Program-made: the position numbers and the translations under genes | Shown here: positions 19,841 through 41,654 of the stretch, in pieces | Numbering within the stretch: the stretch's first letter is position 1 | Layout of the letters: each line of letters opens with the position of its first letter | Notes under the pieces: generated by a model | Databases searched by the model: none | What the model was told of the DNA's origin: nothing | What the model saw: only the letters and a program-made list of their open reading frames with translations | Assembly: GCA_023247035.1 (NCBI GenBank) | Contig: JAHFHG010000002.1 | Span: forward strand, 12,090-76,089 | Origin: Candidatus Omnitrophota bacterium | GTDB lineage: Bacteria > Omnitrophota > Omnitrophia > Omnitrophales > Aquincolibacteriaceae | Length of the DNA stretch: 64,000 bases | Direction: 5' to 3'

Positions 19841-19844
19841 GTCC

Positions 19845-20156: not shown

Positions 20157-20260
20157 AGCGCGGCCTTCCCAAGCGATCCGGCCTAAAAGTTTGACCTGTG
20201 AACCGCTCGACGAAGATTGGTTATTTGAAGGAAGGTTTTAGTTTCATCAATAAGGAAAAA

Positions 20261-20902: not shown

Positions 20903-20903
20903 A

Positions 20904-24511: not shown

Positions 24512-26041
24512 ATGAAAAAAGCTAAAAGCTTGATGGTGCTCGGCACGGGTTCCGGCGTCGGCAAGTCCTTTGTGGCCGCAGGGCTCTGCCGTTTGCTTTC
24601 CAATTCCGGATTTCGCACGGCCCCTTTCAAGGCGCAAAATATGTCCAACAATTCTTACGTGACGGAGGAGGGCGGAGAAATCGGCCGGGCCCAGGCCGTG
24701 CAAGCGGAGTGCGCCCGGGTCACGCCTCATACGGATATGAATCCGGTGCTTTTAAAACCGGCCTCGGACAACGGCTCTCAAGTGATTTTGCAGGGAAAAT
24801 CGATCGGGCATTTTAAAGCCCGCGAATTTTATTCTCAAAGGGAACGGATCGCAAAGGCCATCCGCGAATCTTACGAACGCCTGTCCGCTTCTTATGAAAT
24901 GATTATCTTAGAAGGCGCGGGAAGCCCGGCGGAAATCAATCTGAAAAAAAATGACCTCGTCAATATGCCGATGGCCCGGCTTGCAGGCGCGCGCTGCATT
25001 CTTGTCGGCGACATTGACCGGGGCGGTGTTTTCGCTTCCCTGATCGGGACGCTGAGCCTGCTGGAGGCTGAGGAACAGGAACGGATCGCCGGATTTGTGA
25101 TCAATAAATTCCGCGGCGATTTCTCGCTTCTTGAAGACGGCCTAGACTTTTTAGAGGAGCGGACGGGAAAAAAAGTCTGGGGCGTGCTTCCTTACGATCG
25201 CGATTTGTGGATCGAGGAAGAGGACGCGCTTGCGGTGGAGAATACGAATTTTCGTGATCCAGATAAACAAAAACTTGATAAACTTGATATCGCCGTCATT
25301 TTGCTGCCGCGGCTTTCCAATTTTACGGATTTCGAAATCCTCAAACACGATCCTTCCGTTCAGCTCCGTTATATCAAAAAACCCGAAGAAGTGGGGGAGC
25401 CTGACCTTTTAATTTTGCCCGGCACGAAAGCGACGCTTGCCGACTTGGCGTACCTTAAGGAAAAGAGATTGGATACAAAGATTCTGGATTTTGCGGATCG
25501 AGGCGGCAGGATCCTCGGCATTTGCGGGGGCTATCAAATGATGGGAACGCGCCTTCGTGATCCGCACGGTTTTGAGGAAAGGAATCAAGGGGAAATCGAA
25601 GGCCTTAAGCTGTTTAAAATGGCCACGGAATTTTATCCTGAAAAGGTGTTGCGAAAGGCCGAAGATTTTGTCGATTCGGAAATTTTCGGCGCGCGCGTTT
25701 CGGGAAAACTGGAGTGTTACGAAATCCATATGGGGCAAAGCACGCTTGAAGAGTCTTATCAACCGTTCGGAACTTGCGGCGCTATCCATCCTTCAGGAAA
25801 AATATTGGGCACGTATTATCACGGATTATTCGACAGCGGGGAATTTCGCGAGTCCTTTTTGAATGCGCTCGCTCAAAGCGCGGGGAAGCGGAGAGCCGGC
25901 GGAGGGCATTTACAATCTGCAGGCCAACTCAAGGAAATTCATTATGAGCGTCTCAGCCGGCTTCTTTTGCAGCGCCTTAATCTGAATTTATTAAGCGAGG
26001 CGTTGGGGATTACGGAATTTCATGCGGTTCCTCAGGCGTAG
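24512..26041 (+). CDS. cobQ: Cobyric acid synthase
   Basis: SLMVLGTGSGVGKS start and a GATase-like C-terminus (ICGGYQMMG). Confidence 0.9.
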   Translation: MKKAKSLMVLGTGSGVGKSFVAAGLCRLLSNSGFRTAPFKAQNMSNNSYVTEEGGEIGRAQAVQAECARVTPHTDMNPVLLKPASDNGSQVILQGKSIGHFKAREFYSQRERIAKAIRESYERLSASYEMIILEGAGSPAEINLKKNDLVNMPMARLAGARCILVGDIDRGGVFASLIGTLSLLEAEEQERIAGFVINKFRGDFSLLEDGLDFLEERTGKKVWGVLPYDRDLWIEEEDALAVENTNFRDPDKQKLDKLDIAVILLPRLSNFTDFEILKHDPSVQLRYIKKPEEVGEPDLLILPGTKATLADLAYLKEKRLDTKILDFADRGGRILGICGGYQMMGTRLRDPHGFEERNQGEIEGLKLFKMATEFYPEKVLRKAEDFVDSEIFGARVSGKLECYEIHMGQSTLEESYQPFGTCGAIHPSGKILGTYYHGLFDSGEFRESFLNALAQSAGKRRAGGGHLQSAGQLKEIHYERLSRLLLQRLNLNLLSEALGITEFHAVPQA

Positions 26042-26118: not shown

Positions 26119-26529
26119 ATGCCGACGAAAAAAGACGCTTACCTGATTATCGCGCACGGGACCCGGGATCCGGAAGGCCGGCGCGCCTTCGGGGAATTTC
26201 TCGGAAAATTCCGGGCGGCTTATCCGCACCGGCATATCCAGGGCGCATTTTTAAGTATGGGCGAACCGACGGTCCCTCAAGCCGTTGAGCGCTGCGTCCA
26301 GGAAGGGGCCCGGCAAATTTTCGTCATTCCTCTTTTGTTTTTTTCCGGCCGGCACGCAAAGGAAGATATCCCCCGCCGCATTCAGGAGGCGAAAAGCACT
26401 TACCCCGAGATTGACTTTCATTATGCGAGTCCGCTCGCCGAAAATCCCAAGTTGTTTTCACTCTTGGAAGAAAAGATGAAGACCTTAACACAAGGTAAGA
26501 TGAAAGGCAAATGCACCAACGCGGTATAA
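26119..26529 (+). CDS. cbiX: Sirohydrochlorin cobaltochelatase, short form (CbiX-like)
   Basis: AYLIIAHGTRDPEGR ... FVIPLLFFSGRHAKEDI. Confidence 0.7.
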   Translation: MPTKKDAYLIIAHGTRDPEGRRAFGEFLGKFRAAYPHRHIQGAFLSMGEPTVPQAVERCVQEGARQIFVIPLLFFSGRHAKEDIPRRIQEAKSTYPEIDFHYASPLAENPKLFSLLEEKMKTLTQGKMKGKCTNAV

Positions 26530-26559
26530 AGCGATGAGTTCAACCGCTGGAGGTGCAAG

Positions 26560-27106
26560 ATGGAGTATTCAAACCCTTGAGAGGAAAATGTTGGATGAAG
26601 ACCTGGAGTTTTTAGAAGCTTTGAGGACGTTCGGTCTATGGGATCAGTTTTGGAGGAACTGAGAGAAAAGGATGAAGTCGGTAGAGGGTTTGAAGAGCGT
26701 TCCCGGGATCGGGAAATTCTTCGCGATGCCCATACGCCACGAGATTGAGGGCATCGATTGATTTCAGACATCCGATAAGCTTTGTGCTTATGCAGGATGG
26801 GTCTCCTCGACTTGCGGCATCATCAAGCAAGGGAATAAATGCTTACGGTGTGCGCTTATTGAAGCGGTGATTCCGGCCATTAGAGTCGATGCGCAGTTTA
26901 GAAGTTATTACGAATCCATGAAGGTGAAGAAAGGCGCCAACGCAGCGAAGGCGGCGACAGCAAGAAGACTGCTGAGAATCATTTGCCGGATTTGGAAAGA
27001 GAAAAGATTGTATCGAACACAATCACTTAATGGACCGCTCTCCTCACCTCCTAAAGGTCCCGGATTTATGGGGAGCGTTCTTGGACATAGGTTAGAGGAT
27101 CCGTGA
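26560..27106 (+). mobile_element. IS110-family transposase remnant: C-terminal Transposase_20 region only, with at least one frameshift; the DEDD N-terminal domain is absent
   Basis: LKSVPGIGKFFAMPIRHEIEGID then, after a frameshift, FQTSDKLCAYAGW...GANAAKAATARRLLRIICRIWKE; typical IS110/IS116/IS902 C-terminus. Confidence 0.6.
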
Positions 27107-27247
27107 ATCGGATTTTACGATGTGCGGCGCTGATGCGGGCACGAATAGAAGGATGATCAGCTTTTATGAGGGGATCAAAGCAACAAAAGCCAATGCAGCC
27201 CCTTAAAAAATAATCTTGCATTTGGCTTTCATAGAAGGAGACAAGGC

Positions 27248-27442
27248 ATGAGCGAATCGAAAAAACCAAAATATGAACCTCCGAAAGTTTACCGCGTTGT
27301 GCTGAACCACGATCAGGCGATCCTTTCGGGCTGCTCCACAGGGACGACGAGTATTTCCAACACGACCGGCGCGAATTGTAATACCAGCTGCCGCCGAAGC
27401 ACGTCCACCGCGACCAGTTCCAACTCATCGGCTTCCTCGTAA
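27248..27442 (+). CDS. Candidate RiPP precursor peptide (64 aa; leader MSESKKPKYEPPKVYRVVLNHDQAIL, core rich in Ser/Thr/Asn/Gly with 3 Cys)
   Basis: AAGGAG Shine-Dalgarno 7 nt upstream. Stop lies 8 nt before the kinase gene. Low-complexity STNC core. Confidence 0.5.
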   Translation: MSESKKPKYEPPKVYRVVLNHDQAILSGCSTGTTSISNTTGANCNTSCRRSTSTATSSNSSASS

Positions 27443-27450
27443 AACCGGCG

Positions 27451-28326
27451 ATGCGGAATAAACGCTTTGAGATCGCCAATATTCCGTTTAGTTTCCTTCA
27501 CGATTCCTTTCATATTACCGACTGGCCGAACCCTTTTTATTTCCCGTTTCAAACTCAGAAGCCCGAGTTGATCAGGATACAAACCCGCCGCCTGAGAAAT
27601 ATTCCCTCCCGCGCTTCTTTTTCTGACCTGCGCTTCGACGGCGGTGCGCATTGGCGCCTTTTCGAGAATCACGGGCAATTCGAAGTCCATCTTTTCGATC
27701 CCAAAACCAAAGCGCACGACCGGACGGCGCGTATCTCGCCTGATTTTACGGAAGTGGAGCTGATCCATTGGAAAAAGTCTCATTTCCTGAACTGGATCCT
27801 GCGTCCGCTTGCCGAGATTCTGCTCGTCCATTATCTTGCGTCCCGGGAAGGTTTGCTGGTTCACGCAGCGGCGGTGCGGGACGGCGATCAGGCCTATCTT
27901 TTCGTGGGCCGCTCCGGCGCCGGAAAAACCACGATTTCAACGTTTTGGGCCGGCGTCGAGGGCGACGTTTCTGTTTTGGGAGACGAGCGGCTCGTGGTGC
28001 GGCGCGAGGCCGGCGAATGGTTTGCGTACGGCACTCCCTGGCCGGGAATGGGTTTCCGCTGCAACAATGAACGCGTGCGGATCAGCCGCGTTTTTTTTAT
28101 CCGCCACGGGAGTGAGCATGAAATCATCGAGCAGGGTCCCGCCCTTTATTTTAATGAATTGTTCACGCAGGTTTTTTCCTCTTTTTGGAACCTTGAGGCG
28201 CTCGATCAAATCACGCGGACTTGCCAGAAAGCTGTGGAGGAAATTCCCTGCCGCCTGCTGGCCTTCGCGAAAGCGCCGGATGTGACCGGGTTTGTCAGGA
28301 ATTTTAACTGCGCCGCGCAGCCTTAA
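27451..28326 (+). CDS. HprK-related P-loop serine kinase-like protein
   Basis: AYLFVGRSGAGKTTIS...VLGDERLVV parallels the HprK C-terminal kinase core (Walker A plus acidic motif). Confidence 0.6.
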   Translation: MRNKRFEIANIPFSFLHDSFHITDWPNPFYFPFQTQKPELIRIQTRRLRNIPSRASFSDLRFDGGAHWRLFENHGQFEVHLFDPKTKAHDRTARISPDFTEVELIHWKKSHFLNWILRPLAEILLVHYLASREGLLVHAAAVRDGDQAYLFVGRSGAGKTTISTFWAGVEGDVSVLGDERLVVRREAGEWFAYGTPWPGMGFRCNNERVRISRVFFIRHGSEHEIIEQGPALYFNELFTQVFSSFWNLEALDQITRTCQKAVEEIPCRLLAFAKAPDVTGFVRNFNCAAQP

Positions 28327-28334
28327 ATCCGCTT

Positions 28335-29378
28335 ATGGAAAATTTGCCGCAGGTTTCCGTTCATGAGTTCAATGACCGTCTCCGCGCCCGCGCAAAAGAG
28401 CTGCGGATCCCGTTTCAGGCCTCGCTGGAATTGACCTATGCCTGCAACTTTCGCTGCGTCCATTGTTTTAATCCGCACCACGAATCGAAGGACGACCTTG
28501 GAACCGAATTTTGGAAATCCGTTCTTGGCCAGCTTGCCGGCGAGGGCTGTCTCGTCGCGCTTTTTACCGGCGGCGAGCCGCTCGTGCGCAAAGATCTTTT
28601 TGATCTGCTCGCTCACGCCCGCAATTTGGGAATGCAGTGTATTCTCAACACCAACGGCCTTCTGCTCGATCCGGAAAAAATCCAGAGGCTCGAGGAATCG
28701 GGTCTGACCTTGCTGGCGGTTTCCGTTTTCGGGATGAGCGTTCAAAGTTACGAATCGGTGACCCGCATCCCCGGATCGTTCGCGCGCTTTTTGCTCCACG
28801 TGGAGCAGCTCAGGCGGTCCCGAATCCCGCTCCTTTTTAAAATGCCGGTGATGCAAATGAATTACCAGGAAGTGGAATACGCCAAGGATTGGTTTTCAAG
28901 CCGGGGACTTCTCCTCAAACACACTTCGGAGATCCAGCCTCGCGCGGACGGCGATCCGGAACCTTTGCAGCACCGTATTTCAAGCGCCCAAGCAGCGGAT
29001 TTGAGATTCCGTTACGAAGAAGATTTAGGATGCGGAAAACGAAGCCCCCGGAAAGATGAATTTTTTGATTGCCAATGCGGGAAAAGCGCGGTCGCCATTA
29101 CCCCGCGCGGCGAAATGAATCTGTGCGTCTCTTTCCATTATCCGCGCCACTCGCTTTTAAAAGGAAGTGTCCGGGAGGGCTGGAAAAGGCTTGTGGATTT
29201 TGCGGCAGATTTCAAACCCTCCGAAAAATACGAGTGCCCGGGCTGCCGGTTGTCTCCTTACTGCTCGCGCGGCGCAATGGATTCGTGGCTGAATACGGGC
29301 GATTTCAATCCGTGCGTCCCTTACTTTAAGGAAGTCGCAGGCCGGATTGAAGGCGCCCTGAAAAAAAGGAGTGAATGA
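28335..29378 (+). CDS. Radical SAM enzyme with a C-terminal SPASM domain (peptide-modifying maturase class)
   Basis: TYACNFRCVHCFN (CxxxCxxC) near the N-terminus. C-terminal CQCG...CPGCRLSPYC auxiliary-cluster Cys pattern. Confidence 0.8.
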   Translation: MENLPQVSVHEFNDRLRARAKELRIPFQASLELTYACNFRCVHCFNPHHESKDDLGTEFWKSVLGQLAGEGCLVALFTGGEPLVRKDLFDLLAHARNLGMQCILNTNGLLLDPEKIQRLEESGLTLLAVSVFGMSVQSYESVTRIPGSFARFLLHVEQLRRSRIPLLFKMPVMQMNYQEVEYAKDWFSSRGLLLKHTSEIQPRADGDPEPLQHRISSAQAADLRFRYEEDLGCGKRSPRKDEFFDCQCGKSAVAITPRGEMNLCVSFHYPRHSLLKGSVREGWKRLVDFAADFKPSEKYECPGCRLSPYCSRGAMDSWLNTGDFNPCVPYFKEVAGRIEGALKKRSE

Positions 29379-29385
29379 AGAAAGT

Positions 29386-29850
29386 TTAGGGCGGGCTTCC
29401 GGAATGCAATCGCCTTAAAATCCGCGAAGGCGCGTCGAGAAACCAGGGATTGGTCGGTGAAAGGAGGGCCTGCCAAAAGCGAAGAAGGAACGGCCGTTTT
29501 TCCAGGTCGAAAATTTTTTCTCCTCTTTGAACCTGCGTGATCTTTCCCACCAGCGGAGAAATTCCGGCGCGTCCTTTGAAGAAAGGGACAAAACAGGTGT
29601 TCGCATGAAAATTTTCACCGGATATTTTTCTCACCGCGACATCGCCGAATCGAAGGCTCGATTCGTCTGTTTTCTTGATCGTAACGAGGTCGCCCCGGCG
29701 CACCACCGGCCACATGCAATTTCCAAAGAGTTTCATTTGAACGGAGCCGGAAAATTCCAATTCCGAAAGAAGAATCGAGGCCTGCAGGGGTTGGGAAAGG
29801 GCCTTTTCTTCAAGAGGCGGATTAAGGGACGGCACGGCCAAATTTAGCAC
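29386..29850 (-). CDS. S24/S26-like (LexA/signal-peptidase fold) peptidase with Cys in place of the nucleophile Ser
   Basis: GNCMWPVVRRGDLVTIKK ... FGDVAVRKI mirrors G(D/N)SMxP...GDlvlV...GDivVaK of S24 peptidases. Convergent with the rSAM gene, gap 8 nt. Confidence 0.5.
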   Translation of the reverse strand: MLNLAVPSLNPPLEEKALSQPLQASILLSELEFSGSVQMKLFGNCMWPVVRRGDLVTIKKTDESSLRFGDVAVRKISGENFHANTCFVPFFKGRAGISPLVGKITQVQRGEKIFDLEKRPFLLRFWQALLSPTNPWFLDAPSRILRRLHSGSPP

Positions 29851-30020
29851 GGCGGAGCCGGCTTCCGCAACGGATCTTTTGCCTTCGCCGGATTTTCAAT
29901 TCTTTCTAACATTCAGGATCATTTTCAGTCTTCGGCTCAAAAGCGCATTCTGCGCATTTGATCTTACAAAACGAACCGCTATAATTAATGAAACACGGGC
30001 GGCAGGAAATCGAACCCTTC

Positions 30021-33000
30021 ATGAAAACCATCTCTTTATTCCAGAAACCCAGCGCGATTTTTTTAATCTTTTCTTTAAGCCTTTCCCAAAGTCCCTCGTA
30101 TGCCGCTGCCGCGCCGGCGCCTCCGCTGGCGGTTTCTGAGCGCTCCCGGGCGCTTCTTTTTCTTCCCGAAGAACTTGGCGAGATCGAAGAATCCTTTCAG
30201 GGATCGAACGGAAAAACCGTGATCTTCATTCAAGACGCCCACGATTCCCTCGAAGCGCAGGAAAATATCGCCAAGACTATTCAATACCTGGTGGACAAGT
30301 ACGGGGTGAAGACTGTTTTTGAAGAAGGCTATGAAGGTCCTGTTCCCACGGATGATTATTTCGGCTTCATCAAAGATCCGTCCGTCAAAGAGAAAGTTTC
30401 TTACTTTTTATTAGATAAACTCCGCCTCGGCGGCGCGGAATACGCACACATCAACCGCTTTCACAACTTGTCATTCCCGCACGCGTTAAGCGGGAATCCA
30501 AATTTTAGGTCCCCGATAGAAACATTCGGGGACGACAAAAAACGTGTCGATTTCAAACTGATTGGGGCAGACAATATAAAGTTACATCTTGAGAATATCG
30601 ATTGGTATCGCCAGAATGCCAAGCATAAAGAAGAAACTGGAAGAGATTTGACTATTCTGCAAAATGAAATCGACAAACTTGCCAACCGGTATTTTCCTAA
30701 GGAACTCAAAGAATGGATGAAGCTTAAGAAAAGGTTTGATGAGAAACAAATTGATCTTTTGGATTATTTAAAGCGGACAATACAAGTCCCTCATCGAGAA
30801 TCCATAGACCATAAACTTTACCCCAATCTTTCGCTTCTCCTTCAAGCAGAACACACTCAAGACAAAGAAGTCCTAGAGAAAGTGAAAACCATTGAAGCCA
30901 AGATTCTTTTCGAGGAAATCGATTCGTTGGAAAACGCCGCCGCCGGCCCATTCCTACAAAATGGAACAGACCGGAAAATCTTCCAATATTACAAAGGAAT
31001 AAATCTTCTCAAAAGACTCAACGAGATTGAGATTACGCCCGCTGAATATGAGGCGGTCAAAGCGCAGCTTCAACATCTCAGCACCCAGGAACTGGCCCAA
31101 TTTATTGTCCAGCAAACGAATAAATCCATCGTCCTTTCCAAACGATGGGAGGAAAATATTGAAAGCGCCATTCGGTTTTATCAAATCTCACGAGCCAGAG
31201 ATTCTGCGATTGCCGAGCGACTGAATGATTTTCTTAAAAATCATGATGAAAAAGTGGCTGTCCTTGTCTTTGGAGGATTTCATAAAGAGAGGATTACAGA
31301 ATTGTTGAGAAAGAAAGGACTCCCTTACTATATAGTTTCTCCTCGAATAATGAACGTCGACAATAAGCATAAGGAACTCTACGCGCATTTAATGACAAAG
31401 GGATATTCGCTTTTCCCCGTTGCGGCAAATGTTGCTAAGGCAGCGCGTTTAGCAGGAGAGATCGAGCTCGCGGAAATGGGCGGCCAGAACGCAAAGTCAG
31501 AACTCCGAGCGTACCATGCGGCAATCACTAACATTGTTTCTTCATTGGTCTCCAATCGACCCAATCAAACATCTCGAGAACTGCTCGATCGTTTGATTAA
31601 CGGACGATTGATACACGAAGTTCTAAAAGTATCCAAACAAGCAATGGGAAAACGCCGATCCGAACTAAGAAGTAAAGAATCGGATTTTGCTTTAAGAGAA
31701 AAACGCCGTGATTATCTCAAGCGGCTAATGAATCAAGAAAATAAGCAATGGACGTTGGATGAGTTAGCAAACGCTACAGGTCAATCAACAGGACAGATTG
31801 TTAAGGATTTGCGATATTTGAATCTTTTTAAGCCCTCAAATCACCTAAATTTAGATGCCGAACGCATAGACCGAAGAAGACAGTGGGGATTACCAGATTA
31901 TTCTGACCTCGATAAGCTTTTACCTCGCTTGGATGAAGAATTTGCATATCTTCATGGAGAGGCTCTTTTTAATTTTTTAGCTCAAAAAGGCCGCGAGAAT
32001 GACCCCGTAAGCATGGAAGCGGCTATTTACGGCTTCTATAAATTTGTTGGAGAAAAAACCCCCGGTAATATTTCAGAACGAGGGCGATTGCTTGGTGAAC
32101 GCATTTATCACTATCTGAGGTTAAGAGAAAGTATGCCTTCTGACGGCCTGCGTCGAAATCCAGATGTTGAGTTCGATATTGGTATGGCAGAAAAAAGGAA
32201 GCGGGAGTCACGGCTTCCAAAATTTGGAAATATAAAAACAAGGAGGCCGAAGAAGAAAGTTTCTTTTTCGGAAGCACAGCAAATTATGGAAGAAAAAAAT
32301 TTACATTTAGATCAATCAATCGCATTCGTTGCGTTGTCCACGGCAGAAAATGAAACTTTATTTCGAGCGCTTAAATCAAGCGAATTGGAAGAGTCCGAGC
32401 GAAGACAAATTTATGATTATTTGATTCAGAAGCATGTAGGGTTTGTCGGCTGGTGGATCAAACATAAGATGCCGCCTTGGTATTTTGAACATTTTAACTT
32501 CGAAGAACTTTTAGCTTTTGGCCAAATTGGCCTTATGAAAACGATTGAAAGATATGATTTCAAAATGGGGCGGCGCTTTACCAGTTATGCCGAATGGTGG
32601 ATTCGCCATTCTATCCAACGCTCCATAGAGAAAAAAACACATAAATCTTTAAATGTCAGGCGTGATGAGGATAGCCCGGAGTGGATTGATACTTTGTCGG
32701 ATTCAAAAGATCAATCGGAAGAAGAATTATGGCCGGAACTATTTTCCAGTCTTAGGCATCTCGATAGTCGGTCTCGCATTATGTTGAGCTTGCGTTACGG
32801 GATTGGATCAGTAAGAACATACAATCTTCGAGAAATTGGCTTAATGTTTGGTGTAACTCACGAGCGTGTTAGACAAATTACAGAAAGAGCAGTTGAAAAG
32901 TTAAAACGCTTGGTTGGAAAAGTAACGGTTGATGATTCTTCTCAAGACCATACCGATGTTTTTTTATTCGAGGCTATGGAGTTAGAGCCAGAGAATCCAC

Positions 33001-36000
33001 TTTTCAAGCCACTAAGCCATCTCGGAGTTAAAAAGCTTGACCGGATTCGAGAAGTTCTTTCAAAAGAAAATCGCTTCAACTCGGAAATGCTGATGAGGAT
33101 TTTTAGGTCACGCGGCCAGTATGTGATAGCTCCATCGAAATATTTATGGGGTCTGCCTGCGGGTTTGCTTGAAACCGGCGGTGACACTTCCCATCATTTT
33201 GGATCGTGGAATGAAGAAGGTGGAAGACATAACATAGATTTACAAAAACCCAAAAAGATTCATTTTTCCAACGCACTCACAACCACAACCGAAATCATAA
33301 AAAGGTATCCTTATGCTCGGTATCTACTGCCTCCTGAAGAACAACTATTGCTGGCCTCTCAGGCTCAAGGAGAAAGGAGCCGATTCTATGCTTTGGGTAA
33401 GACATTGCAGTGGATTGGACTTTCTCCGCAAGATTTTATTATTTGGCTTGTTGAAAATAAAAAATATTTAGATCAAGAAATCGTTGATTTTATCGCACAA
33501 TCACCACTTTCTAAACGTCCTCGATACGAGCTAACGGCATCCCGCACAGGTGAGCATCTTCATGGGTCTTTACCAAGACCACGTACTGACCGAAAGATTG
33601 CAACGAAATGGATTTCAACTGAAGAAACCAGCTACACGCTAATCACACCTGCTGAATTGGCGGACCGCTTCCCTTCTGCCGAACCCTTCTTGGATAAACT
33701 CGAACCTCAATTACTTCTTGAGGCGGATTCGTCCGAGCATGATGAAATTAAATACTATTCTTTTGTTGAAGATGGACATCATACAAAAATTCTAATAAGG
33801 ATCAATAAAAGAACCGGCGAAATCCAAAGTCCTCATGATGGCCCAATCGGTTTTAGAAAGGAAATTTTGGATTTTGTAAGAAAAGGTGAGTTTGGCAATA
33901 AGCAAAAGCCTCCTGTTACCGCGCCTTTTGAAATGCACGCCGGATCACGGCATTTTATTTATTTCGGAACGATGGGGAAAGGTTCCATTGGCTTGAGTAT
34001 GAAGGGAGTGAAACCTAACACGCGTGTATCAGGAAGCGCTGTTCATTTGGAGCATGCTCCTCTTGGAATGGGGCCGCAATGGCTTTTAAGACTCACTGTT
34101 CATTTGAAAAGACCAAGAGTTGTTTATGCGAGATTCAAACGCTCTGGAACCCGCTTAGGTTTATTTAAAAAATCCCCTCAAACTTATATCGGAGCTTTTG
34201 TCAAACTTGGGAAATGGAATCAGGAAAAAATCCAGCCATTCCCTGAAAATGAAATCGAAATTACCGCGAGTTCCAAAGGACGTTTGGAACTTGGAAGCAA
34301 TGGCGATGGAGAGCGGATTGTTATTCACTTACCACTTTTACCCAAAGATCATAAAGTTTTAATTCGAAAAGTCCGCAATCAAGAAGATGGACAACAGCTC
34401 TTGGTCGTTCATACCCGCAATCCTGCTTATCGATATAGAAAATTTTATTATCGATTCACGAATCGTGGCTATCACACCCGAAGATACCACGAGGAAGTAA
34501 AGGACATAAGTCCCACGGCTAGAAGGAAGCTTAGCTATGAAGAAATTGCAAAGGCACAAGAAGATTTGAGAAGCCGAGAAGGAGCAGAGGCAAACTTATG
34601 GCGCGATCCCGAAAAGATTGCTTATGAGCTTGACCTATTCGACGCTTATTATCTTGTTTCGGAAGTTCAAAGAATAAACGCTTCTTTAGTTGCTCAAGAC
34701 ACAGCTAATTTGCCGCCTCTCGAAATAGACACCTCAAAGATTGTTGAGCTGCCGACTCCGGCTTACGATCAAGTAGGAGACGTTTATCATGCTGTTCCAG
34801 AATCTTCTGAGCGACCGGAGAAATCCGAGAAACCAGTCAAACCTAAACCATTATCCCCTTTAAGACTTGCTCAAAAAAGATTGGAAGAAGCTGAAAAAAA
34901 AACATTAGCTGAACGTTTGAAGGTTGGCTTTCGAGATGTGGGAGAAAGCGGTCGGTTTTTAGATTTGGGCGCAGGAAAGGGTGATTTAACCGCTGAACTT
35001 GCTGGACAATTTCAAGGTGGGGTTGCAGTCGAAATAAATGAAGATCGAGTCGAGCAGCTACGGCAGAGAAAAATTCCAAATCTTAATATTTGGGACATGG
35101 ATTTTTTTGATTATATGGAGATGGCGATTAAAGGGAATCAGCTTTTTGATGCGATTCTCATTTCACATGCTCTTTTATTCATTAAATTTGATCGCCGGGA
35201 CGCTTTCTTAAAAGATGTTCTATCAAGACTTAAGCCGAATGGAAAATTAGCGATTATTTTAAATGGCAGTAAAATTGAAGAGAGAAACCAAGTTCAGTTG
35301 CGAGCAAAGCTCATGAGAAAGCATGAGGCGCTAGCAGGAGACAACCCATCAACCAATATTGAAAGCAAACTGCGACAAATCGGCTATGGGGTACAAACCG
35401 AAAGAGTCAGAATCATTCATGAGACTCCTTCCAGAGACGAAATGATTTCTATTGTAAAAGCAATATTGCCACGCGAAGACCGTTTTCGTCTGTCGAATAT
35501 CACTGGATTTGTCGATTCAGTCCTGAAATTACCTGGAGAAGAAAAGTACCGCCTCTATGTTGATCAAGATATTTTATGGATAACACATCCTCGTTCTGAG
35601 GTTAGAAAGCAAGAAAATGTATTTGCAATGGTGTCTGTCAACGATTGGCAAAACTTTAATCGAACTAATCAGAATACCGAGGCTACGGCCACCAAAGCCG
35701 TCGTTTTTATAGATGGTTCCGTCGATAGCAAAGATGCCAAGCAGCGGGCGGAAGAATTAGCGGTGCTGGCCGCAGGTAATCCGAACCGAACGATTGTGGT
35801 TTATAATGCGGACAAAGTTTTTAAAAATAAAGGCGGTGAAATGGCGGAACTTTTAAAGTCGTTTGGTCTCGCCAATGTCAAGTTCGCTGCGGGTGAGTTG
35901 TCCGAAGCCCTCAAGCCCTACCAATTCCGGGATCAAGTTGATTTGGTGCACTACTCGGCAAGCGAAGAGGAGGCTGTTTTTGTTCAAGCCTCCGTTGGGA

Positions 36001-36209
36001 AATGGCTGGCGCAAAAACTGACCCGATTTGTCGGAGGGCCCGGCGCCTTAGGATACGGAATAAAATATTTGCAGGCTGTGAAATTGGGCAAGCCTGTGGA
36101 AGGTATCACGCCCGAGAACGGCTACTACGCCGTTTCCCCAGGCGCTTCGGAGTGGATGCGAAGCCTTTATCGAGCTCGGTTCGCGACCGTTTTCGCTCAA
36201 GCGGCGTGA
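30021..36209 (+). CDS. Giant multidomain protein (about 2060 aa): signal-peptide-like N-terminus, TraB/GumN/TIKI-like domain, sigma-70 region 2 plus region 4 module, central unknown region, class I SAM-methyltransferase motif, unknown C-terminus
   Basis: Uninterrupted 6.2 kb frame in AT-rich DNA. Motifs IFIQDAHDS...VLVFGGFHKERITELLRKKGLPYYIV; GQIGLMKTIERYDFKMGRRFTSYAEWWIRHSIQRSI; LREIGLMFGVTHERVRQITERAVEKL; FLDLGAGKGDLT. Confidence 0.7.
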   Translation: MKTISLFQKPSAIFLIFSLSLSQSPSYAAAAPAPPLAVSERSRALLFLPEELGEIEESFQGSNGKTVIFIQDAHDSLEAQENIAKTIQYLVDKYGVKTVFEEGYEGPVPTDDYFGFIKDPSVKEKVSYFLLDKLRLGGAEYAHINRFHNLSFPHALSGNPNFRSPIETFGDDKKRVDFKLIGADNIKLHLENIDWYRQNAKHKEETGRDLTILQNEIDKLANRYFPKELKEWMKLKKRFDEKQIDLLDYLKRTIQVPHRESIDHKLYPNLSLLLQAEHTQDKEVLEKVKTIEAKILFEEIDSLENAAAGPFLQNGTDRKIFQYYKGINLLKRLNEIEITPAEYEAVKAQLQHLSTQELAQFIVQQTNKSIVLSKRWEENIESAIRFYQISRARDSAIAERLNDFLKNHDEKVAVLVFGGFHKERITELLRKKGLPYYIVSPRIMNVDNKHKELYAHLMTKGYSLFPVAANVAKAARLAGEIELAEMGGQNAKSELRAYHAAITNIVSSLVSNRPNQTSRELLDRLINGRLIHEVLKVSKQAMGKRRSELRSKESDFALREKRRDYLKRLMNQENKQWTLDELANATGQSTGQIVKDLRYLNLFKPSNHLNLDAERIDRRRQWGLPDYSDLDKLLPRLDEEFAYLHGEALFNFLAQKGRENDPVSMEAAIYGFYKFVGEKTPGNISERGRLLGERIYHYLRLRESMPSDGLRRNPDVEFDIGMAEKRKRESRLPKFGNIKTRRPKKKVSFSEAQQIMEEKNLHLDQSIAFVALSTAENETLFRALKSSELEESERRQIYDYLIQKHVGFVGWWIKHKMPPWYFEHFNFEELLAFGQIGLMKTIERYDFKMGRRFTSYAEWWIRHSIQRSIEKKTHKSLNVRRDEDSPEWIDTLSDSKDQSEEELWPELFSSLRHLDSRSRIMLSLRYGIGSVRTYNLREIGLMFGVTHERVRQITERAVEKLKRLVGKVTVDDSSQDHTDVFLFEAMELEPENPLFKPLSHLGVKKLDRIREVLSKENRFNSEMLMRIFRSRGQYVIAPSKYLWGLPAGLLETGGDTSHHFGSWNEEGGRHNIDLQKPKKIHFSNALTTTTEIIKRYPYARYLLPPEEQLLLASQAQGERSRFYALGKTLQWIGLSPQDFIIWLVENKKYLDQEIVDFIAQSPLSKRPRYELTASRTGEHLHGSLPRPRTDRKIATKWISTEETSYTLITPAELADRFPSAEPFLDKLEPQLLLEADSSEHDEIKYYSFVEDGHHTKILIRINKRTGEIQSPHDGPIGFRKEILDFVRKGEFGNKQKPPVTAPFEMHAGSRHFIYFGTMGKGSIGLSMKGVKPNTRVSGSAVHLEHAPLGMGPQWLLRLTVHLKRPRVVYARFKRSGTRLGLFKKSPQTYIGAFVKLGKWNQEKIQPFPENEIEITASSKGRLELGSNGDGERIVIHLPLLPKDHKVLIRKVRNQEDGQQLLVVHTRNPAYRYRKFYYRFTNRGYHTRRYHEEVKDISPTARRKLSYEEIAKAQEDLRSREGAEANLWRDPEKIAYELDLFDAYYLVSEVQRINASLVAQDTANLPPLEIDTSKIVELPTPAYDQVGDVYHAVPESSERPEKSEKPVKPKPLSPLRLAQKRLEEAEKKTLAERLKVGFRDVGESGRFLDLGAGKGDLTAELAGQFQGGVAVEINEDRVEQLRQRKIPNLNIWDMDFFDYMEMAIKGNQLFDAILISHALLFIKFDRRDAFLKDVLSRLKPNGKLAIILNGSKIEERNQVQLRAKLMRKHEALAGDNPSTNIESKLRQIGYGVQTERVRIIHETPSRDEMISIVKAILPREDRFRLSNITGFVDSVLKLPGEEKYRLYVDQDILWITHPRSEVRKQENVFAMVSVNDWQNFNRTNQNTEATATKAVVFIDGSVDSKDAKQRAEELAVLAAGNPNRTIVVYNADKVFKNKGGEMAELLKSFGLANVKFAAGELSEALKPYQFRDQVDLVHYSASEEEAVFVQASVGKWLAQKLTRFVGGPGALGYGIKYLQAVKLGKPVEGITPENGYYAVSPGASEWMRSLYRARFATVFAQAA
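30470..30536. repeat. Second copy of the double-hairpin unit, located inside the coding sequence of the giant ORF (read through in frame)
   Basis: TTGTCATTCCCGC...GCGGGAATCC...GTCCCCGATAGAAACATTCGGGGACGAC aligns with 14389-14445. Confidence 0.5.
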
Positions 36210-36270
36210 GGAGTTCAATCGAGAAAAAAAGTTTTGAATTCGGAATGCGTGTTCAGAATCGCGGCCGTAT

Positions 36271-36696
36271 CTAATTCAACTTCACGACGTCGCTGACGCG
36301 GTCGCGGTGAATCTTCACAATGAAGGCCCCTGCGGCGAGGCGAGGCTCGATCGTGCGTTCCGTGATTTTATCCACGTAGGGAAGATACCCTTTGTAGTAA
36401 ACAAAATACCAGTCCTGCGAAACGTTCTGCTCAATCGTGCGGATTTCCTGCGGCTGCCCCAAAAGACTCAGGACCTCGTTAGCGCTTTTGCCTTTGAGGA
36501 ACAACTTTCCATTGGCGATGATCCGCCGGTTGGTCATTTGATCCCTGCCGAACTGGTCGCCTCCCTTGAAAAAGGTGTAGGGCTTCTCCTGCAGGGGCTG
36601 CCAAATCCCGATGCCCGCGCAGCCGCTTAAAAATAAAACAAAACAAAAAAGCAAAAGGGAATGCAGAACTTGTAGATTCGAAATTGGGGTCTTCAT
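36271..36696 (-). CDS. Small lipoprotein, hypothetical
   Basis: Lipobox LFLSGCAG after a hydrophobic signal. Confidence 0.5.
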   Translation of the reverse strand: MKTPISNLQVLHSLLLFCFVLFLSGCAGIGIWQPLQEKPYTFFKGGDQFGRDQMTNRRIIANGKLFLKGKSANEVLSLLGQPQEIRTIEQNVSQDWYFVYYKGYLPYVDKITERTIEPRLAAGAFIVKIHRDRVSDVVKLN

Positions 36697-36841
36697 TTTT
36701 ACTGCTAAGCATATCGGCGTTTTTGAGGAGGCCTTAAATCAGATCCCGCGCCCCAGCCGTCCGTTTATTCTGCTAGACGCTTGCCTGAGGCGCTTGATAT
36801 GATTGATCCTTGAACATTCAAGGATCGCTTCAGAGAGGCCT

Positions 36842-38914
36842 ATGAGTTCTCATCATCCGGATCCCGCCAACCGTTTGGCGAAAGAAAAAAGCCCTTACCT
36901 TCTCCAGCACGCCCAAAATCCCGTAGATTGGTATCCGTGGTCGGAAGAGGCCTTCGAAAAAGCAAAGCGCGAGGGCAAGATGATCTTCCTTTCCATCGGC
37001 TATTCGACCTGCCACTGGTGCCACGTGATGGAACACGAATCCTTCGAGAATCGGGAAATCGCCGCGCTCTTGAACCGGCATTTTGTCTCGATCAAAGTCG
37101 ACCGCGAAGAAAGGCCCGATATCGACCAGATTTATATGACCGCGATCCAGACGATGACCGGATCGGGAGGCTGGCCGCTGACCGCATTCCTGACTCCGGA
37201 AGGCCGGCCGGTCACCGGCGGGACCTATTTTCCTCCCGAGGACAAGTGGGGCCGGATGGGAATGAAAACCCTCCTGCCGCGGCTCGCTCAAATGTGGGAA
37301 GAAAAACGCCGGGAAATGGAAACGGCCGGAGAGCAGCTGGCGGGAATCCTTCAATCCCAGCCCTCCCCGTCTTCTCCAATGATCCTGAGTGAAGAAATTT
37401 TTACCGTCGCGCACGGCCAGTTTGCGGCAAGCTTCGATCCCGAGCACGGCGGCTTCGGAAAGGCGCCCAAGTTTCCCCGCCCGCACGATTTGTCCTTCCT
37501 TCTCCGCTATTGGAAAAGGACTTCCGGCGCGCGCGAACTTGAAATGGTGAAGACGACTTTAAATCAGATGGCCCAAGGCGGGATTTACGATCACCTCGGC
37601 GGCGGATTCCACCGCTATTCCACGGACGAGGCCTGGCTCGTCCCTCATTTTGAAAAGATGCTTTACGATCAGGCGCTTCTGGCCCGGACCTACCTTGAGG
37701 CGTACCAGGCGGCGCGAATCCCGGAATACGCGGACGTGGCGCGCGATATTTTCAATTATGTCCAGCGGGATATGACGGCTCCGGAAGGCGGATTCTATTC
37801 CGCCGAAGACGCGGACAGCGAAGGCGAAGAGGGGAAGTTTTACGTCTGGCGCCCGGAAGAAATCCGGAAAATCTTGGGCGAAGAAGACGGGAAAATTTTC
37901 AATGAATTTTATGGAATCACGGACGCCGGGAATTTTGAGCACGGGATGTCCATCCTGCACCTCACTCAGCGCATTCCGGAATTCGCGGCGCAAAAAGGGA
38001 TACCGGTTGAGGAACTGAAAAGAAAACTCGTCGAGGGCCGGCGGAAACTTTTTGAATCCCGCCGCAGAAGAATCCCGCCGCATAAGGACGATAAAATCCT
38101 CACGGCCTGGAACGGGTTAATGATTTCTGCGCTGGCGCTCGGGGCGCAAATCTTAGATGAGCCTTCTTATTCCGCAAGCGCCGGCCGGGCCGCGGATTTT
38201 ATCCTTACAAGCCTCCAGCGCGGAGGAAGGCTTTGGCGCCGCTTCCGCCAAGGCGAGGCTGCGGTCCCGGCGTTTCAGGAGGATTACGCCTTTTTTGCCT
38301 TGGGCCTCCTTGATCTTTATCAGGCCACTTTTGAAATCAAATGGTTTGAAGAGGCGAAACGGCTGACGGAAGACATGATCCGTTTTTTCTGGGATGAAAA
38401 AGCCGGCGGATTTTTTTACACGGCATCAGACAGCGAACCTTTGATCGCCCGGATGAAGGAATATTACGACGGGGCCGTCCCTTCCGGGAATTCCATCGCC
38501 GCCCTTTTGCTTTTAAGATTGAGCCACATGACGGGCGGAAGCTCTTTGCGGGAAACGGCCGAAAAAATTTTTCATTCCAACGCCCAGGCCCTGGAAAAAT
38601 ATCCGATGGCTTTTCCTCAGTTCTTGATCGCGGTCGATTTTGCGCTCGGCCCGGCGCGGGAGATTGTTTTGGCGGGAAAAAAAGACTCCCCGGATTTTCA
38701 AAATTATCTGCGGCTGCTGCGGAGCCGTTTTGAACCGCGCCAGGTCGTCTTGCATCATCCGGAAGATGAAACGGCCGGGAGGATCGAAAATTTGGCGGGT
38801 TTTATCAAGGATCAGATTGCTCCGGCGGGCAGGACCGCGGTTTATGTCTGCCGGAACCGGACGTGCCGGCGGCCGGCCGCGACACTCCAAGAGCTTGAGA
38901 AGATATTATCGTAA
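36842..38914 (+). CDS. Thioredoxin-domain protein of the DUF255 / YyaL (spermatogenesis-associated protein 20-like) family, with a C-terminal six-hairpin glycosidase-like region
   Basis: [17 protein letters not shown]...[16 protein letters not shown]. Confidence 0.8.
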
Positions 38915-38945
38915 ACCCATTTTGAATAACTCCGGCGGCCGATAG

Positions 38946-40079
38946 ATGAAAATACAAGATTTTCCCGATCAAAAATTTGACGCCATTGTCTTGGGAACGG
39001 GAATTGCCGGACTGGCCGCTGCGATCTCGCTGGCGCGCCGCCGGCAAAAAGTCCTCATGATCGGCAAAAAAAATCTGGCGGGCGAGGCCTCTCCGGCCGC
39101 GGCGGGAATTTTGGATCCTTTTCTCGAAATGACTCCCGGCCATCCGCTTTTTAAATTAAGCCGCGAGGCTTTTTTCCGTTATCCGGCCTGGCTTAGGCAT
39201 CTGCGGAAGTTTACAAAAAAGGATTTGGGTTATGCCCGGCCCGGAATGCTTTACGTTGCTTTCAACCGCCGCGAGGAATCAGAATTGAGGAGGCGTTTCG
39301 CGTGGCAGCGCAAAAGCGGGATTCCCGTGATCCGGAAATCGCGTCCGGAAATTCTCAGGAGCGAGCCGCACCTTAACCGGCAAGCCCGCAGCGGTCTTTT
39401 ATATCCGACAATCGGGCGGATTAAGCCGCGCGCTTTTTTGAAGGTTCTTTTCCGCTTCGCAAAGCGCCGCGGCGTTGGAATTCTGAACACAAGGCAGGAT
39501 GCCCGCCTGCTCACGCTTCGAAACCATGTCCGTGGAGTCCAAGTGGATTCTTCGGTATACTTGTCTCCCGTTGTCATTAACGCGACCGGAGCCTGGGCGG
39601 GCAAAAATCCTTACTTAGGGATGAAGCCTCCTATTCTCCCGGCCCGAGGACAGGCGCTTGTCGTGAAGGCAAAAAAAATCACACAAAGGATCCTGCACGG
39701 CCTGGCGGGATTTTATATTGTTCCCTGGGGAAAGAATGCTTATCTTCTGGGTTCCACCGTTGAATTTTCCGGCTTCAAAGCCCGGACAACGCGGGAAGGG
39801 ATCAAAAAAATCAAGGAAGGAGCCGAAAAACTGATTCCGGCGCTGCGGGATTTTAAAGCCGTCAACCGCTGGGCGGGCCTGCGTCCTTTTTCCAAAGACG
39901 GTTTGCCCTGGATCGGCCCTACGCGAATGGGCGGCCTTTATTGGGCGCTGGGTTTTTACCGGAGCGGAATCTTGATGAGCGGTTATATCGGAGAGCTTAT
40001 GGCCGACGGAATTCTTTCGGGGAAGTGGCCGGCAATCTTAAAGCCGTTTGATCCAAGGCGGCTTTCTCGGGGAACGTAA
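38946..40079 (+). CDS. FAD-dependent oxidoreductase (DAO family; glycine oxidase ThiO-like)
   Basis: FDAIVLGTGIAGLAAAISLARRRQKVLMIGKK dinucleotide-binding motif. Confidence 0.7.
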   Translation: MKIQDFPDQKFDAIVLGTGIAGLAAAISLARRRQKVLMIGKKNLAGEASPAAAGILDPFLEMTPGHPLFKLSREAFFRYPAWLRHLRKFTKKDLGYARPGMLYVAFNRREESELRRRFAWQRKSGIPVIRKSRPEILRSEPHLNRQARSGLLYPTIGRIKPRAFLKVLFRFAKRRGVGILNTRQDARLLTLRNHVRGVQVDSSVYLSPVVINATGAWAGKNPYLGMKPPILPARGQALVVKAKKITQRILHGLAGFYIVPWGKNAYLLGSTVEFSGFKARTTREGIKKIKEGAEKLIPALRDFKAVNRWAGLRPFSKDGLPWIGPTRMGGLYWALGFYRSGILMSGYIGELMADGILSGKWPAILKPFDPRRLSRGT

Positions 40080-40101: not shown

Positions 40102-40980
40102 ATGAAAGAAAAACAAATACTGACTACGACAAAAGCCATTAAGTGGTCCGTTGCCACCGCGCTTTTTCTGGTGTTTTTAAAATTCGCGACCGGGATTCTC
40201 ACTCATTCGATGGCCATTTTGGCCTCTGCGCTGGATTCTACAATGGACCTGGCGATTTCGATCGTCAATCTGATCGCGGCCCGGGAAGCGGCGAAACCTC
40301 CGGATGAAGATCACGCCTACGGCCACGGGAAAATCGAAAGCCTCGCCGGCCTTTTGCAGAGCTTTTTGATCGGCGTGAGCGGGCTTTATGTCATTTTTGA
40401 ATCGGTGAAGCGGCTGATCTACGGGACGTATATTCAAATTATTCCCCTGGGGATCGGCGTGATGCTTCTCGCAATGCTGATCAGTCTGAGCCTTGTCTGG
40501 CGGCTCAGGATGACAGCCCGGGAAAATAAATCCCTGATCCTTTCCACCGAGACGCTCCATTACGTCACGGATGTGACCACCAACGGCGGGACGGTGGTGG
40601 CTCTCTTGCTTGTCCAGTTTACCCATTTTCCGGTTTGGGACCTCGGGGTTTCCATTGCCGTATCCTTTTATGTTTTTAGAATGGCCTACCGGATTTTACG
40701 CCAGGCCGTCGATGAGCTCTTGGACCGCAGCCTTCCTCCCGTGCCTAAAGAAGAAATCGAAAAGATTATCCAGGAATTCAGCCCGTCCGTCGTGGGGCTC
40801 CATAATTTCCGAAGCCGCCAGGTCGGCGCTCAAATTTTTTTGGATTTTCATATCGAAATCCGCGGGGAAGATGATTTCAAAAAAGCCCACACGATGACCG
40901 AATCCCTCATCGCGCGCATCCAGACGCATTATCCCGGCGCGGATGTCACGGTCCATTATGATCCGGAAGGAGAGATCTGA
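40102..40980 (+). CDS. Cation diffusion facilitator (CDF) family metal efflux transporter
   Basis: 6-TM core with HSMAILASALDSTMD ... DEDHAYGHGKIE and a C-terminal cytoplasmic domain. Confidence 0.8.
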   Translation: MKEKQILTTTKAIKWSVATALFLVFLKFATGILTHSMAILASALDSTMDLAISIVNLIAAREAAKPPDEDHAYGHGKIESLAGLLQSFLIGVSGLYVIFESVKRLIYGTYIQIIPLGIGVMLLAMLISLSLVWRLRMTARENKSLILSTETLHYVTDVTTNGGTVVALLLVQFTHFPVWDLGVSIAVSFYVFRMAYRILRQAVDELLDRSLPPVPKEEIEKIIQEFSPSVVGLHNFRSRQVGAQIFLDFHIEIRGEDDFKKAHTMTESLIARIQTHYPGADVTVHYDPEGEI

Positions 40981-41654
40981 TGCGGATTCTTCTTGTGGAA
41001 GATGAAAAGAAAATGGCGAGTTTTATCGAGCGCGGGCTTAAAGAAGAAGGCTACGCGGTGGACATTGCCCTGGACGGGGAGAAAGGTTTGGAATACGTAT
41101 CGATCAACGAATATGACGTCATTATTTTGGATATTTTGCTGCCCAAAATCAACGGCTTGGCCCTTTGCGAAAAAATCCGCAAGGCCGGTTCCCGACTCCC
41201 CATCCTGATGGTGACGGCCCGGGATTCGGTCCAGGATAAAATCCGCGGCCTGGATCAGGGGGCCGACGACTATTTAACGAAGCCCTTTTCGTTTGACGAG
41301 CTCCTGGCCCGCATCCGGGCCCTTTCAAGGCGCCCGCGCGAGCTCCAGGAAAAATCCGAACTCCGTTCGGGGGACCTTTCTTTAAATCTCCTGACTCGGC
41401 GTGTGTTGATCGGTAAAAATGAAGCGGCGCTTTCTCAAAAGGAATTTGCGCTTTTGGAATACCTGATGAAGCGCAAAGGCGCGGTCGTTTCCCGCACTCA
41501 AATCGCAGAGCACGTTTGGGACATCCATTTTGATCCGATGAGCAACACCATTGATGTCTACATTAATTTCCTGCGCAAAAAAATCGACGGGGATCGAAAA
41601 CAAAGCCGGATTGAAACCCTTCGAGGGGCGGGCTACCGCCTGTTAGCGGAATGA
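40980..41654 (+). CDS. OmpR-family response regulator (REC plus winged-helix Trans_reg_C)
   Basis: MRILLVEDE...DVIILDILLP...LTKPF and a C-terminal LSQKEFALLEYL...GAGYRL. Confidence 0.85.
   Translation: MRILLVEDEKKMASFIERGLKEEGYAVDIALDGEKGLEYVSINEYDVIILDILLPKINGLALCEKIRKAGSRLPILMVTARDSVQDKIRGLDQGADDYLTKPFSFDELLARIRALSRRPRELQEKSELRSGDLSLNLLTRRVLIGKNEAALSQKEFALLEYLMKRKGAVVSRTQIAEHVWDIHFDPMSNTIDVYINFLRKKIDGDRKQSRIETLRGAGYRLLAE

Follow-up and report, generated by a model that had tools for sequence, protein, structure and literature searches.

A probable composite region with an IS110 relic and an AT-rich gene interior at the junction of two conserved blocks in an Omnitrophota genome

We analysed a 64-kilobase (kb) stretch of contig JAHFHG010000002.1 (hereafter the window), in which a preliminary description had delimited a single acquired genomic island at 26,530-36,700, beside a remnant of an insertion sequence (IS) of the IS110 family. 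We find that this interval is better explained, with a probability of about 0.6, as a composite of four parts at the junction of two conserved chromosomal blocks than as one acquired island. It holds an IS110 relic at the point where synteny ends, a peptide-modification cassette and a lipoprotein gene linked to the right-hand block in relatives, and a long open reading frame (ORF) whose AT-rich interior is probably the only recently foreign DNA in the interval. Thus, the relic and the foreign composition of the long-ORF interior stand, and the unity of the 10-kb island does not. The window derives from an uncultured Omnitrophota genome, because the homologues of the long ORF and of CobQ belong, where named, to "Candidatus Omnitrophica/Omnitrophota".

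Results

Two conserved blocks meet at the interval

The genes on which the argument turns are listed below (aa, amino acids; GC3, GC content at third codon positions).

24,512-26,041, plus strand: cobQ
26119..26529, plus strand: cbiX, closing the conserved left block ribE-cobB-116 aa-cobQ-cbiX (Pfam CbiX, E 5e-29)
about 26531..27031, plus strand: IS110-family transposase relic, only the C-terminal ~160 codons, adjoining cbiX
27248..27442, plus strand: 64-aa precursor peptide gene; leader conserved (..KYExPKVYRVxLxHxQAIL), core rich in Cys, Ser and Thr; GC3 0.631
27451..28326, plus strand: ScmC-like P-loop protein, HPr-kinase-related (Pfam PF27840 ScmC on record); GC3 0.634
28335..29378, plus strand: radical SAM maturase-type enzyme with SPASM-like C-terminal Cys motifs (Pfam Radical_SAM, E 6e-21); GC3 0.615
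29386..29850, minus strand: 154-aa ORF, weakly similar to signal peptidases (S24/S26-like), with GNCMWP where the family has GSMxP; GC3 0.555
29988..36209, plus strand: 2,073-aa modular protein of an Omnitrophota-specific family, with a signal- or transmembrane-like N-terminus
30537..35675, plus strand: AT-rich interior of the long ORF; by maximum likelihood, the composition changes at codons 183 and 1896 (near 30,537 and 35,676)
36271..36696, minus strand: lipoprotein with lipobox LSGC; GC3 0.683
36842..38914, plus strand: DUF255/YyaL thioredoxin-domain gene, first of the right block (Pfam Thioredox_DsbH, E 4e-77)

The plus strand holds nearly all genes of the window, and the order 64-aa ORF, ScmC-like gene, radical SAM gene, minus-strand 154-aa ORF, 2,073-aa ORF and minus-strand lipoprotein gene was confirmed. 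The loci of relatives used for comparison were the cobQ contig (L085) and the DUF255 contig (L091) of a 79% relative from sample ERZ21828284, four loci with CobQ proteins 58-63% identical to that of the window (L087-L090), and one locus of a 66% relative (L093). In addition, we examined three contigs with homologues of the ScmC-like gene (L174-L176) and 80 further loci recovered from metagenomes by a scan with the motifs of the N-terminal module of the long-ORF family (L094-L173).

The conserved left gene order ends exactly at the IS110 relic. In L087-L090, the shared order is cobQ-cbiX-2Fe-2S thioredoxin-like-MamF-like-~560 aa-BFN-TrxB-AhpC-DUF547-CN_hydrolase, followed by L21-L27-Obg in three of these relatives and, in L090, by DarTG together with a long-ORF family member. 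None of the genes downstream of cbiX in L087-L090 was found anywhere in the 64-kb window. The window CbiX is 49-59% identical to its counterparts in these four loci, and the alignment runs to the natural C-terminus (..MKGK), beyond which the window protein carries five new, unrelated residues (CTNAV). Thus, the breakpoint lies within the last cbiX codons.

On the other side, the right block DUF255-DAO-CDF-response regulator-histidine kinase-...-HIT-HD is collinear in L091 and L093. The lipoprotein is 52% identical to the product of the minus-strand gene directly upstream of DUF255 in L093; since it is conserved beside DUF255 in this 66% relative, it is a native right-block gene and not island cargo. 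Upstream of its lipoprotein gene, L093 carries MutS-MutL and other genes, not cbiX. In none of the relatives examined are cbiX and DUF255 neighbours, so that the interval is a junction of two blocks rather than an insertion into a conserved site.

The sequence adjoining cbiX is recognizable as IS110 debris. Frame 2 of 26,531-27,120 translates as the C-terminal half of an IS110 transposase, which matches the C-terminal domain Transposase_20 (PF02371, E 3e-11) and positions 219-343 of the 343 positions of the NCBIfam IS110 model (E 1.4e-14), and is ~40% identical to annotated IS110 transposases over ~26,555-27,031 (tblastn, E 2e-20). Neither the N-terminal DEDD (RuvC-like) domain nor an uninterrupted frame is present in the fragment. 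The preliminary description had placed a frameshifted C-terminal IS110 fragment after cbiX; the fragment and its place are correct, and the damage consists of two in-frame stop codons and an internal deletion instead of a frameshift. A second IS110 copy was found neither in the window nor in any fetched locus. Judged from its sequence, the fragment is an inert relic and not an element, and it is predicted to be unable to move or recombine.

The compositional anomaly is confined to the interior of one gene

Low GC is confined to 30-36 kb of the window. GC3 of the long ORF is 0.392 versus 0.589 ± 0.033 for the 40 other genes, with GC1 and GC2 (first and second codon positions) nearly equal. The precursor, ScmC-like, radical SAM, S24-like and lipoprotein genes have GC3 values of 0.555-0.683, and the IS relic is also host-like. 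Tetranucleotide distance remains at z < 1 at 26.5-29.5 kb and reaches z 9.3, with extreme values only at 30-36 kb. Within the long ORF, GC3 is 0.568 in codons 1-183, 0.356 in codons 184-1895 and 0.554 in codons 1896-2073. The likelihood ratio of the change points, 51, was reached by none of 200 permutations, and the support interval of the second change point spans codons 1873-1969. Because both change points lie within the long ORF and its ends are host-like, the compositional "island" is intragenic.

We compared this profile with other members of the long-ORF family. The homologues in L148, L097 and L140 have both end modules in common with the window ORF and nothing between, and their GC3 profiles are flat (L148, L140) or fall gently from 0.55 to 0.45 (L097). 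At the 45 usable family loci, GC3 of the N-terminal module differs from that of the flanks by -0.012, which is not significant. The deficit of the window interior, about -0.23, lies beyond all 45 comparators, the most extreme of which is -0.20. That GC3 of the N-terminal module tracks residue conservation was ruled out (r = 0.06). Sharp change points, a deficit beyond all comparators, flat profiles in homologues and this lack of correlation favour a separate history of the interior over a purely intrinsic bias.

Two further observations concern composition. Across the long-ORF family, the regression slope of GC3 on flank GC3 is 0.75. The conserved DUF255-DAO region (37000-40000) shows a tetranucleotide z of about 4-6 and a GC content of 0.54-0.57, although it is syntenic in relatives; moderate deviation thus occurs in native genes, which marks the limits of island calls made from composition only.

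A probably resident peptide-modification cassette

The three genes following the relic form a putative peptide-modification cassette. In all three contigs L174, L175 and L176, small ORFs that agree with the window ORF in leader and Cys pattern are followed by ScmC and then by a radical SAM gene. Because these homologous small ORFs occupy the same place, we consider the 64-aa ORF to be the precursor gene. The members found, besides that of the window (27248-27442), are:

~290-487 of L174
~1946-2131 of L175
~436-621 of L176

The family has the leader KKKYExPK[VL]YRVxLxHxQAIL, the core xxCSTGTTxxSNxT...C...CRR and then a Ser/Thr-rich tail, and no curated family matches it.

The relationship of the two larger proteins to curated families is remote. 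The ScmC-like protein matches NCBIfam TIGR04249 weakly (17 bits versus a cutoff of 125); in an exhaustive search its closest representatives were 51, 42 and 36% identical, and no more than these three were close. All scores of the radical SAM enzyme against the NCBIfam radical SAM/SPASM families are below cutoff, including those for the ScmE/ScmF families (TIGR04250 and TIGR04251, 52-55 bits versus cutoffs of 400), and the enzyme is 45% identical to its counterpart in L175, itself with a weak SPASM match.

In each of the three contigs, a radical SAM/SPASM gene immediately precedes the precursor gene. The window has the IS relic in this place, no remnant of a gene of that kind was found in 26,400-27,300, and the cassette is probably truncated on its left. 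In L175, which comes from assembly GCA_964581425.1, the cassette lies tail-to-tail with a homologue of the lipoprotein (43% identical; BLASTP E 8e-27), followed by a response regulator, 66% identical to that at 40,980-41,654 of the window, and then a kinase; this locus contains no transposase and no long ORF. The composition of the cassette is host-like in the window (GC3 0.62-0.63, and tetranucleotides) and in L175 (GC3 0.39-0.44, matching its neighbours). Given this linkage without an IS and the host-like composition in both genomes, the cassette appears to be an old resident of the right-hand neighbourhood.

Integrase, attachment site and direct repeats of a classical genomic island were not found

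Searches for the hallmarks of an integrated island were negative. ARAGORN detected no tRNA or tmRNA genes in the 64 kb. Direct and inverted repeats in 25.5-38 kb comprise only short, chance-level pairs, none of which brackets the interval or 29.4-36.3 kb, and inspection of the junctions at 29,379-29,385 and 36,210-36,270 revealed no repeats. Among all ORFs of the interval, searched with Pfam and NCBIfam, and beside it, no integrase or recombinase was found except for the truncated IS110 fragment. Atypical composition does not extend across the interval and is limited to 30,537-35,676. Furthermore, no ScmC, cassette radical SAM, S24-like, IS110 or cbiX gene was found near family members in the 80 long-ORF loci; since the components do not co-occur there, they do not form a recurrent island-like unit. 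An Rfam search of the whole 64 kb yielded no families at threshold; this includes IS110-associated RNA families and, although the window carries cob genes, the cobalamin riboswitch. A PADLOC scan returned only generic sigma, methyltransferase and radical SAM domain matches, and thus no defence-system assignment.

These results revise most of the grounds on which the interval had been called an island. The composition shift is strong in 30,537-35,676, and the remaining genes counted as island are host-like in GC3 and tetranucleotides. The strand switch is real; as a mark of acquisition it involves only two small genes, and the lipoprotein gene is opposite to its neighbours in relatives too. The proposed right edge at the lipoprotein is contradicted by relatives, in which this gene is a conserved neighbour of DUF255 (L093) or adjoins the cassette (L175). 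The tRNA or attachment site and the direct repeats suggested as something to look for at the edges were not found there. It had also been proposed that the same gene order in distant relatives without IS traces would speak against acquisition, and the order cassette-lipoprotein-regulator-kinase in L175 provides this in part. The interval lacks the integrase, the attachment site with direct repeats and the atypical composition throughout that mark a classical island, and the island call is an ordinary one with misplaced limits.

The long modular ORF and its family

The 2,073-aa protein consists of a conserved N-terminal module (aa ~20-500), a unique interior and a conserved C-terminal module (aa ~1880-2073). 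The N-terminal module is the only part common to all 119 homologues listed, and about six of them have aa ~1880-2073 in common as well; those of the 119 that are named come exclusively from Omnitrophota sources. The N-terminal module of the family, ~480 aa long, carries the motifs IQDAHDSLEAQ, EEGYEGPVPTD, GGAEYAHINR and VFGGFH, all present in the window ORF, and in the homologues it is followed by many different enzyme domains. Some family contigs hold two members 10-20 kb apart. In the 58% relative (L090), 19183-21539 holds a DarT-DarG (Macro) pair and a family member of 1,166 aa in place of L21-L27-Obg, which makes this another variable spot holding a member of the family.

The interior of the window protein contains sigma-70 region 2/4-like domains at aa 810-974 (32415-32909) and a class I S-adenosylmethionine methyltransferase domain at aa 1652-1760 (34941-35267). 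A sigma-factor fold inside a protein with a signal- or transmembrane-like N-terminus is an unusual setting. The best curated matches of the sigma segment are generic (RpoD/RpoS/MzaA) and all far below cutoff, and searches of phage and plasmid proteins with the AT-rich interior returned only generic sigma-70 matches. The structural model of the N-terminal module, with a predicted local distance difference test (pLDDT) score of 81.6, has weak fold matches to erythromycin esterase-type proteins (E 0.03, TM-score 0.2-0.26), and a weak Pfam ChaN/Tiki match agrees with these; we tentatively assign an erythromycin-esterase-type fold on the basis of this model.

Two short sequence features lie at or near the start of the long ORF:

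29958..29985, plus strand: promoter-like site TTGATC-16-TATAAT, a consensus match only (consensus scan, 10/12 matches)
30471..30536, plus strand: palindromic repeat, in frame and with two hairpins, lying in the N-terminal module at the first composition change point (fold z -3.1)

Alignments of homologues to the long ORF begin at query residues 10-23, and the promoter-like site suggests that the true start is the ATG at 30,021. The palindromic repeat comprises the hairpins ATTCCCGC..GCGGGAAT and GTCCCCGA..TCGGGGAC and encodes ..SFPHALSGNPNFRSPIETFGDD... The motif occurs once in the window (0 expected by chance); L118/L119 have it at the corresponding position and L088 has it within cobQ, and the homologue P0006 carries the identical 31-aa insert.

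Other genes and repeats around the interval

The 154-aa ORF between the cassette and the long ORF had been described as a Cys-S24 peptidase. The ORF is there, with a Cys at the nucleophile position; the S24 label is not borne out, since similarity to S24/S26 peptidases is sub-threshold only: E 6e-4 and 19.6 bits (cutoff 51.85) against the NCBIfam archaeal signal peptidase I, and E 0.6 against SEC11 in the PDB. It is an orphan in its position, as no homologue was found beside the cassette in L174 or L175 or in the 80 long-ORF family loci.

In the left block, a 611-aa ORF without a Pfam match lies between ribE and cobB (20904-22739). It is absent from L085 of the 79% relative, where ribE adjoins cobB, and is a second lineage-specific insertion, with host-like composition.

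A 97-nucleotide (nt) dispersed repeat of the GTCATTGCGAGG...CTCGCAATGAC type is present at 4856-4952 of L085 and at 1-97 of L091, in mutually inverted orientation; it thus terminates both contigs, shortly past cobQ in the one and shortly ahead of DUF255 in the other. This shared repeat is compatible with, and does not show, an adjacency of the cobQ and DUF255 ends across a repeat-flanked segment. A scan of GTDB species representatives with the DUF255 protein, made in search of a close relative, gave a best match of 56% identity, in other phyla.

Discussion

A proposed history of the interval and the evidence against it

We infer the following order of events. An IS110 element would once have inserted beside cbiX, and a later deletion or rearrangement would have removed its 5' half together with the genes that follow cbiX in relatives. 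The same event may have joined the cob block to the cassette-lipoprotein-DUF255 neighbourhood within the last cbiX codons, and it probably cut off the upstream radical SAM gene or genes of the cassette, which would itself have long resided in the right-hand neighbourhood, together with the lipoprotein and the regulator-kinase pair. Between the cassette and the lipoprotein lie the S24-like ORF and the 2,073-aa ORF, both of which would be specific to this lineage. Finally, recombination in or close to the conserved end modules probably brought in the interior of about 5.1 kb, with a lower-GC relative as the donor.

This import could be one instance of a modular protein system common to Omnitrophota, in which the end modules would serve as recombination handles and interiors with different enzyme or regulator domains would be swapped between paralogues and genomes, the 5.1-kb interior having been freshly imported; recurrent palindromic elements may mark or promote such exchange. 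We regard this wider proposal as somewhat doubtful. We infer an exchange mechanism for the interiors from composition and module sharing only.

Several observations weigh against this history. The comparison genomes are only distantly related, at 58-66% protein identity, and the window and its relatives also differ in the genes upstream of ribE, which indicates that gene order is generally fluid in this lineage; with fluid gene order and distant relatives, a break in synteny taken by itself supports an IS-mediated event only weakly. In the only close relative (79%), the cobQ contig stops 636 nt past cobQ, without cbiX, and the DUF255 contig begins 302 nt upstream of DUF255; because contig ends thus fall at both edges, an empty and an occupied site cannot be compared. 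The adjacency of cassette and lipoprotein was seen in a single locus, L175. The first GC3 change point is loosely placed, with a support interval of codons 164-550, and no donor sequence for the AT-rich interior was found in the homologue searches made. Finally, at the 45 family loci, GC3 of the variable part is on average 0.057 below that of the flanks (36/45 negative; p = 2e-6), so a bias of the family itself, and not import, could account for part of the anomaly.

Alternative explanations

The last of these points is also an argument for the view that nothing in the interval was acquired, that is, that all of it was inherited vertically, with the IS fragment an old incidental scar and the AT-rich interior a product of drift intrinsic to the family in fast-evolving variable regions. 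The conserved N-terminal module does not show the family-wide deficit, and the ORF ends, the S24-like gene and the cassette are all host-like, as this view would have it. Owing to the family-wide trend towards lower GC3 in the variable part, this explanation stays alive. We nevertheless consider it rather unlikely, because the interior exceeds every comparator in its deficit, homologues with both end modules have flat or gently declining profiles, GC3 is uncorrelated with residue conservation, and synonymous-site composition, expected to be uniform in one transcript, changes sharply.

Arrival of the whole interval 26,530-36,700 in one step on a mobile element, with the IS110 fragment as its remnant, would account for the relic at the left edge, for the lack of a counterpart beside cbiX in four relatives and for the strongly AT-rich part, and IS110 transposases have been noted near giant Omnitrophota genes (bioRxiv 10.64898/2026.06.07.730766). 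Against this, the anomaly is restricted to one ORF among host-like genes, relatives that lack an IS show both the lipoprotein and the cassette in linkage with the native right block, and tRNA genes, integrase and direct repeats were not found. Moreover, no relative has the two flanks side by side, the components do not occur together at the 80 related loci, and the interior shows no phage or plasmid similarity beyond generic sigma factors. A single island is thus improbable.

An assembly or binning chimera, with DNA of different organisms united at the IS fragment, also had to be considered, as metagenomic assemblies are often broken or wrongly joined at IS elements and repeats, and short-read unitigs of one sample stop near 27,123, 27,212 and 30,266. 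However, an independent 18-kb contig spans 17,978-36,092 with 99.9% identity and a contig from another sample covers 34,811-39,102 (99.6-99.9% for the two contigs, which come from other assemblies and samples). Because these contigs cover the region, the arrangement is not a misassembly; codon composition is also equal on both sides of the relic, and a chimera is hardly credible. We therefore retain the composite junction as the best explanation of the interval.

Significance

Omnitrophota are uncultured and probably host-dependent, and their long modular proteins are suspected to act in contact with other cells. Labelling the interval as an island would misclassify as acquired DNA both the resident peptide-modification cluster and the native lipoprotein, and it would hide the real signal, a sharply bounded, foreign-looking segment inside one gene. 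If true, the swapping of interiors between conserved ends would explain the diversification of the long-protein repertoire of Omnitrophota, and what deserves to be pursued is this intragenic mosaic in a family of modular proteins. More generally, IS debris and a GC dip are insufficient to delimit an island in poorly sampled, rearranged lineages.

Comparison with known systems

Like the flexible or hypervariable regions at synteny breakpoints of Omnitrophota genomes (10.64898/2026.06.07.730766), the window has lineage-specific genes between conserved blocks, IS110 debris and a long gene nearby. Unlike them, it has no intact mobile element, integrase or attachment site, and the parts of its cargo differ in age and composition; the long ORF, at 2 thousand aa, is also outside the class of at least 10 thousand aa to which that work refers (bioRxiv 10.64898/2026.06.07.730766). 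With classical tRNA-linked, integrase-bearing islands the interval shares accessory genes and an atypical segment adjoining mobile-element debris, whereas it lacks the tRNA, the integrase and the direct repeats, its atypical segment lies in a single gene and its flanks are not neighbours in relatives. Similarly, the relic retains the recognizable C-terminal Transposase_20 domain of IS110-family insertion sequences (about 40% identity) but not the DEDD catalytic half and the 5' end, and what is left contains stop codons.

The cassette resembles the ScmC-type radical SAM/SPASM cassettes (SynChlorMet ScmC, HprK-related kinase A/B) in combining a small Cys/Ser/Thr-rich precursor, a P-loop ScmC-like protein and a radical SAM enzyme, in an order kept in three other contigs. 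It differs from the curated families in scores far below the NCBIfam cutoffs and has one radical SAM gene left, where relatives have one or two more upstream.

In the long-ORF family, a conserved N-terminal module combined with highly variable cargo and several copies per genome is reminiscent of the logic of polymorphic toxins and Rhs proteins; however, the variable part is the interior and not the C-terminal tip, and no toxin/immunity pair is evident. The in-frame palindromic repeat of the window recalls the in-frame palindromic elements of Rickettsia. The "Dockerin-type" giants of Omnitrophota (bioRxiv 10.1101/2023.11.21.568195) likewise have multi-enzyme domains, as does the family cargo of PPDK_N, NUDIX, HAD, radical SAM and HEAT, although the window protein is far smaller. 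Recent studies have described long multi-domain proteins in Omnitrophota (PMC10066038; bioRxiv 10.1101/2023.11.21.568195; 10.64898/2026.06.07.730766), and the long ORF is to be placed among them.

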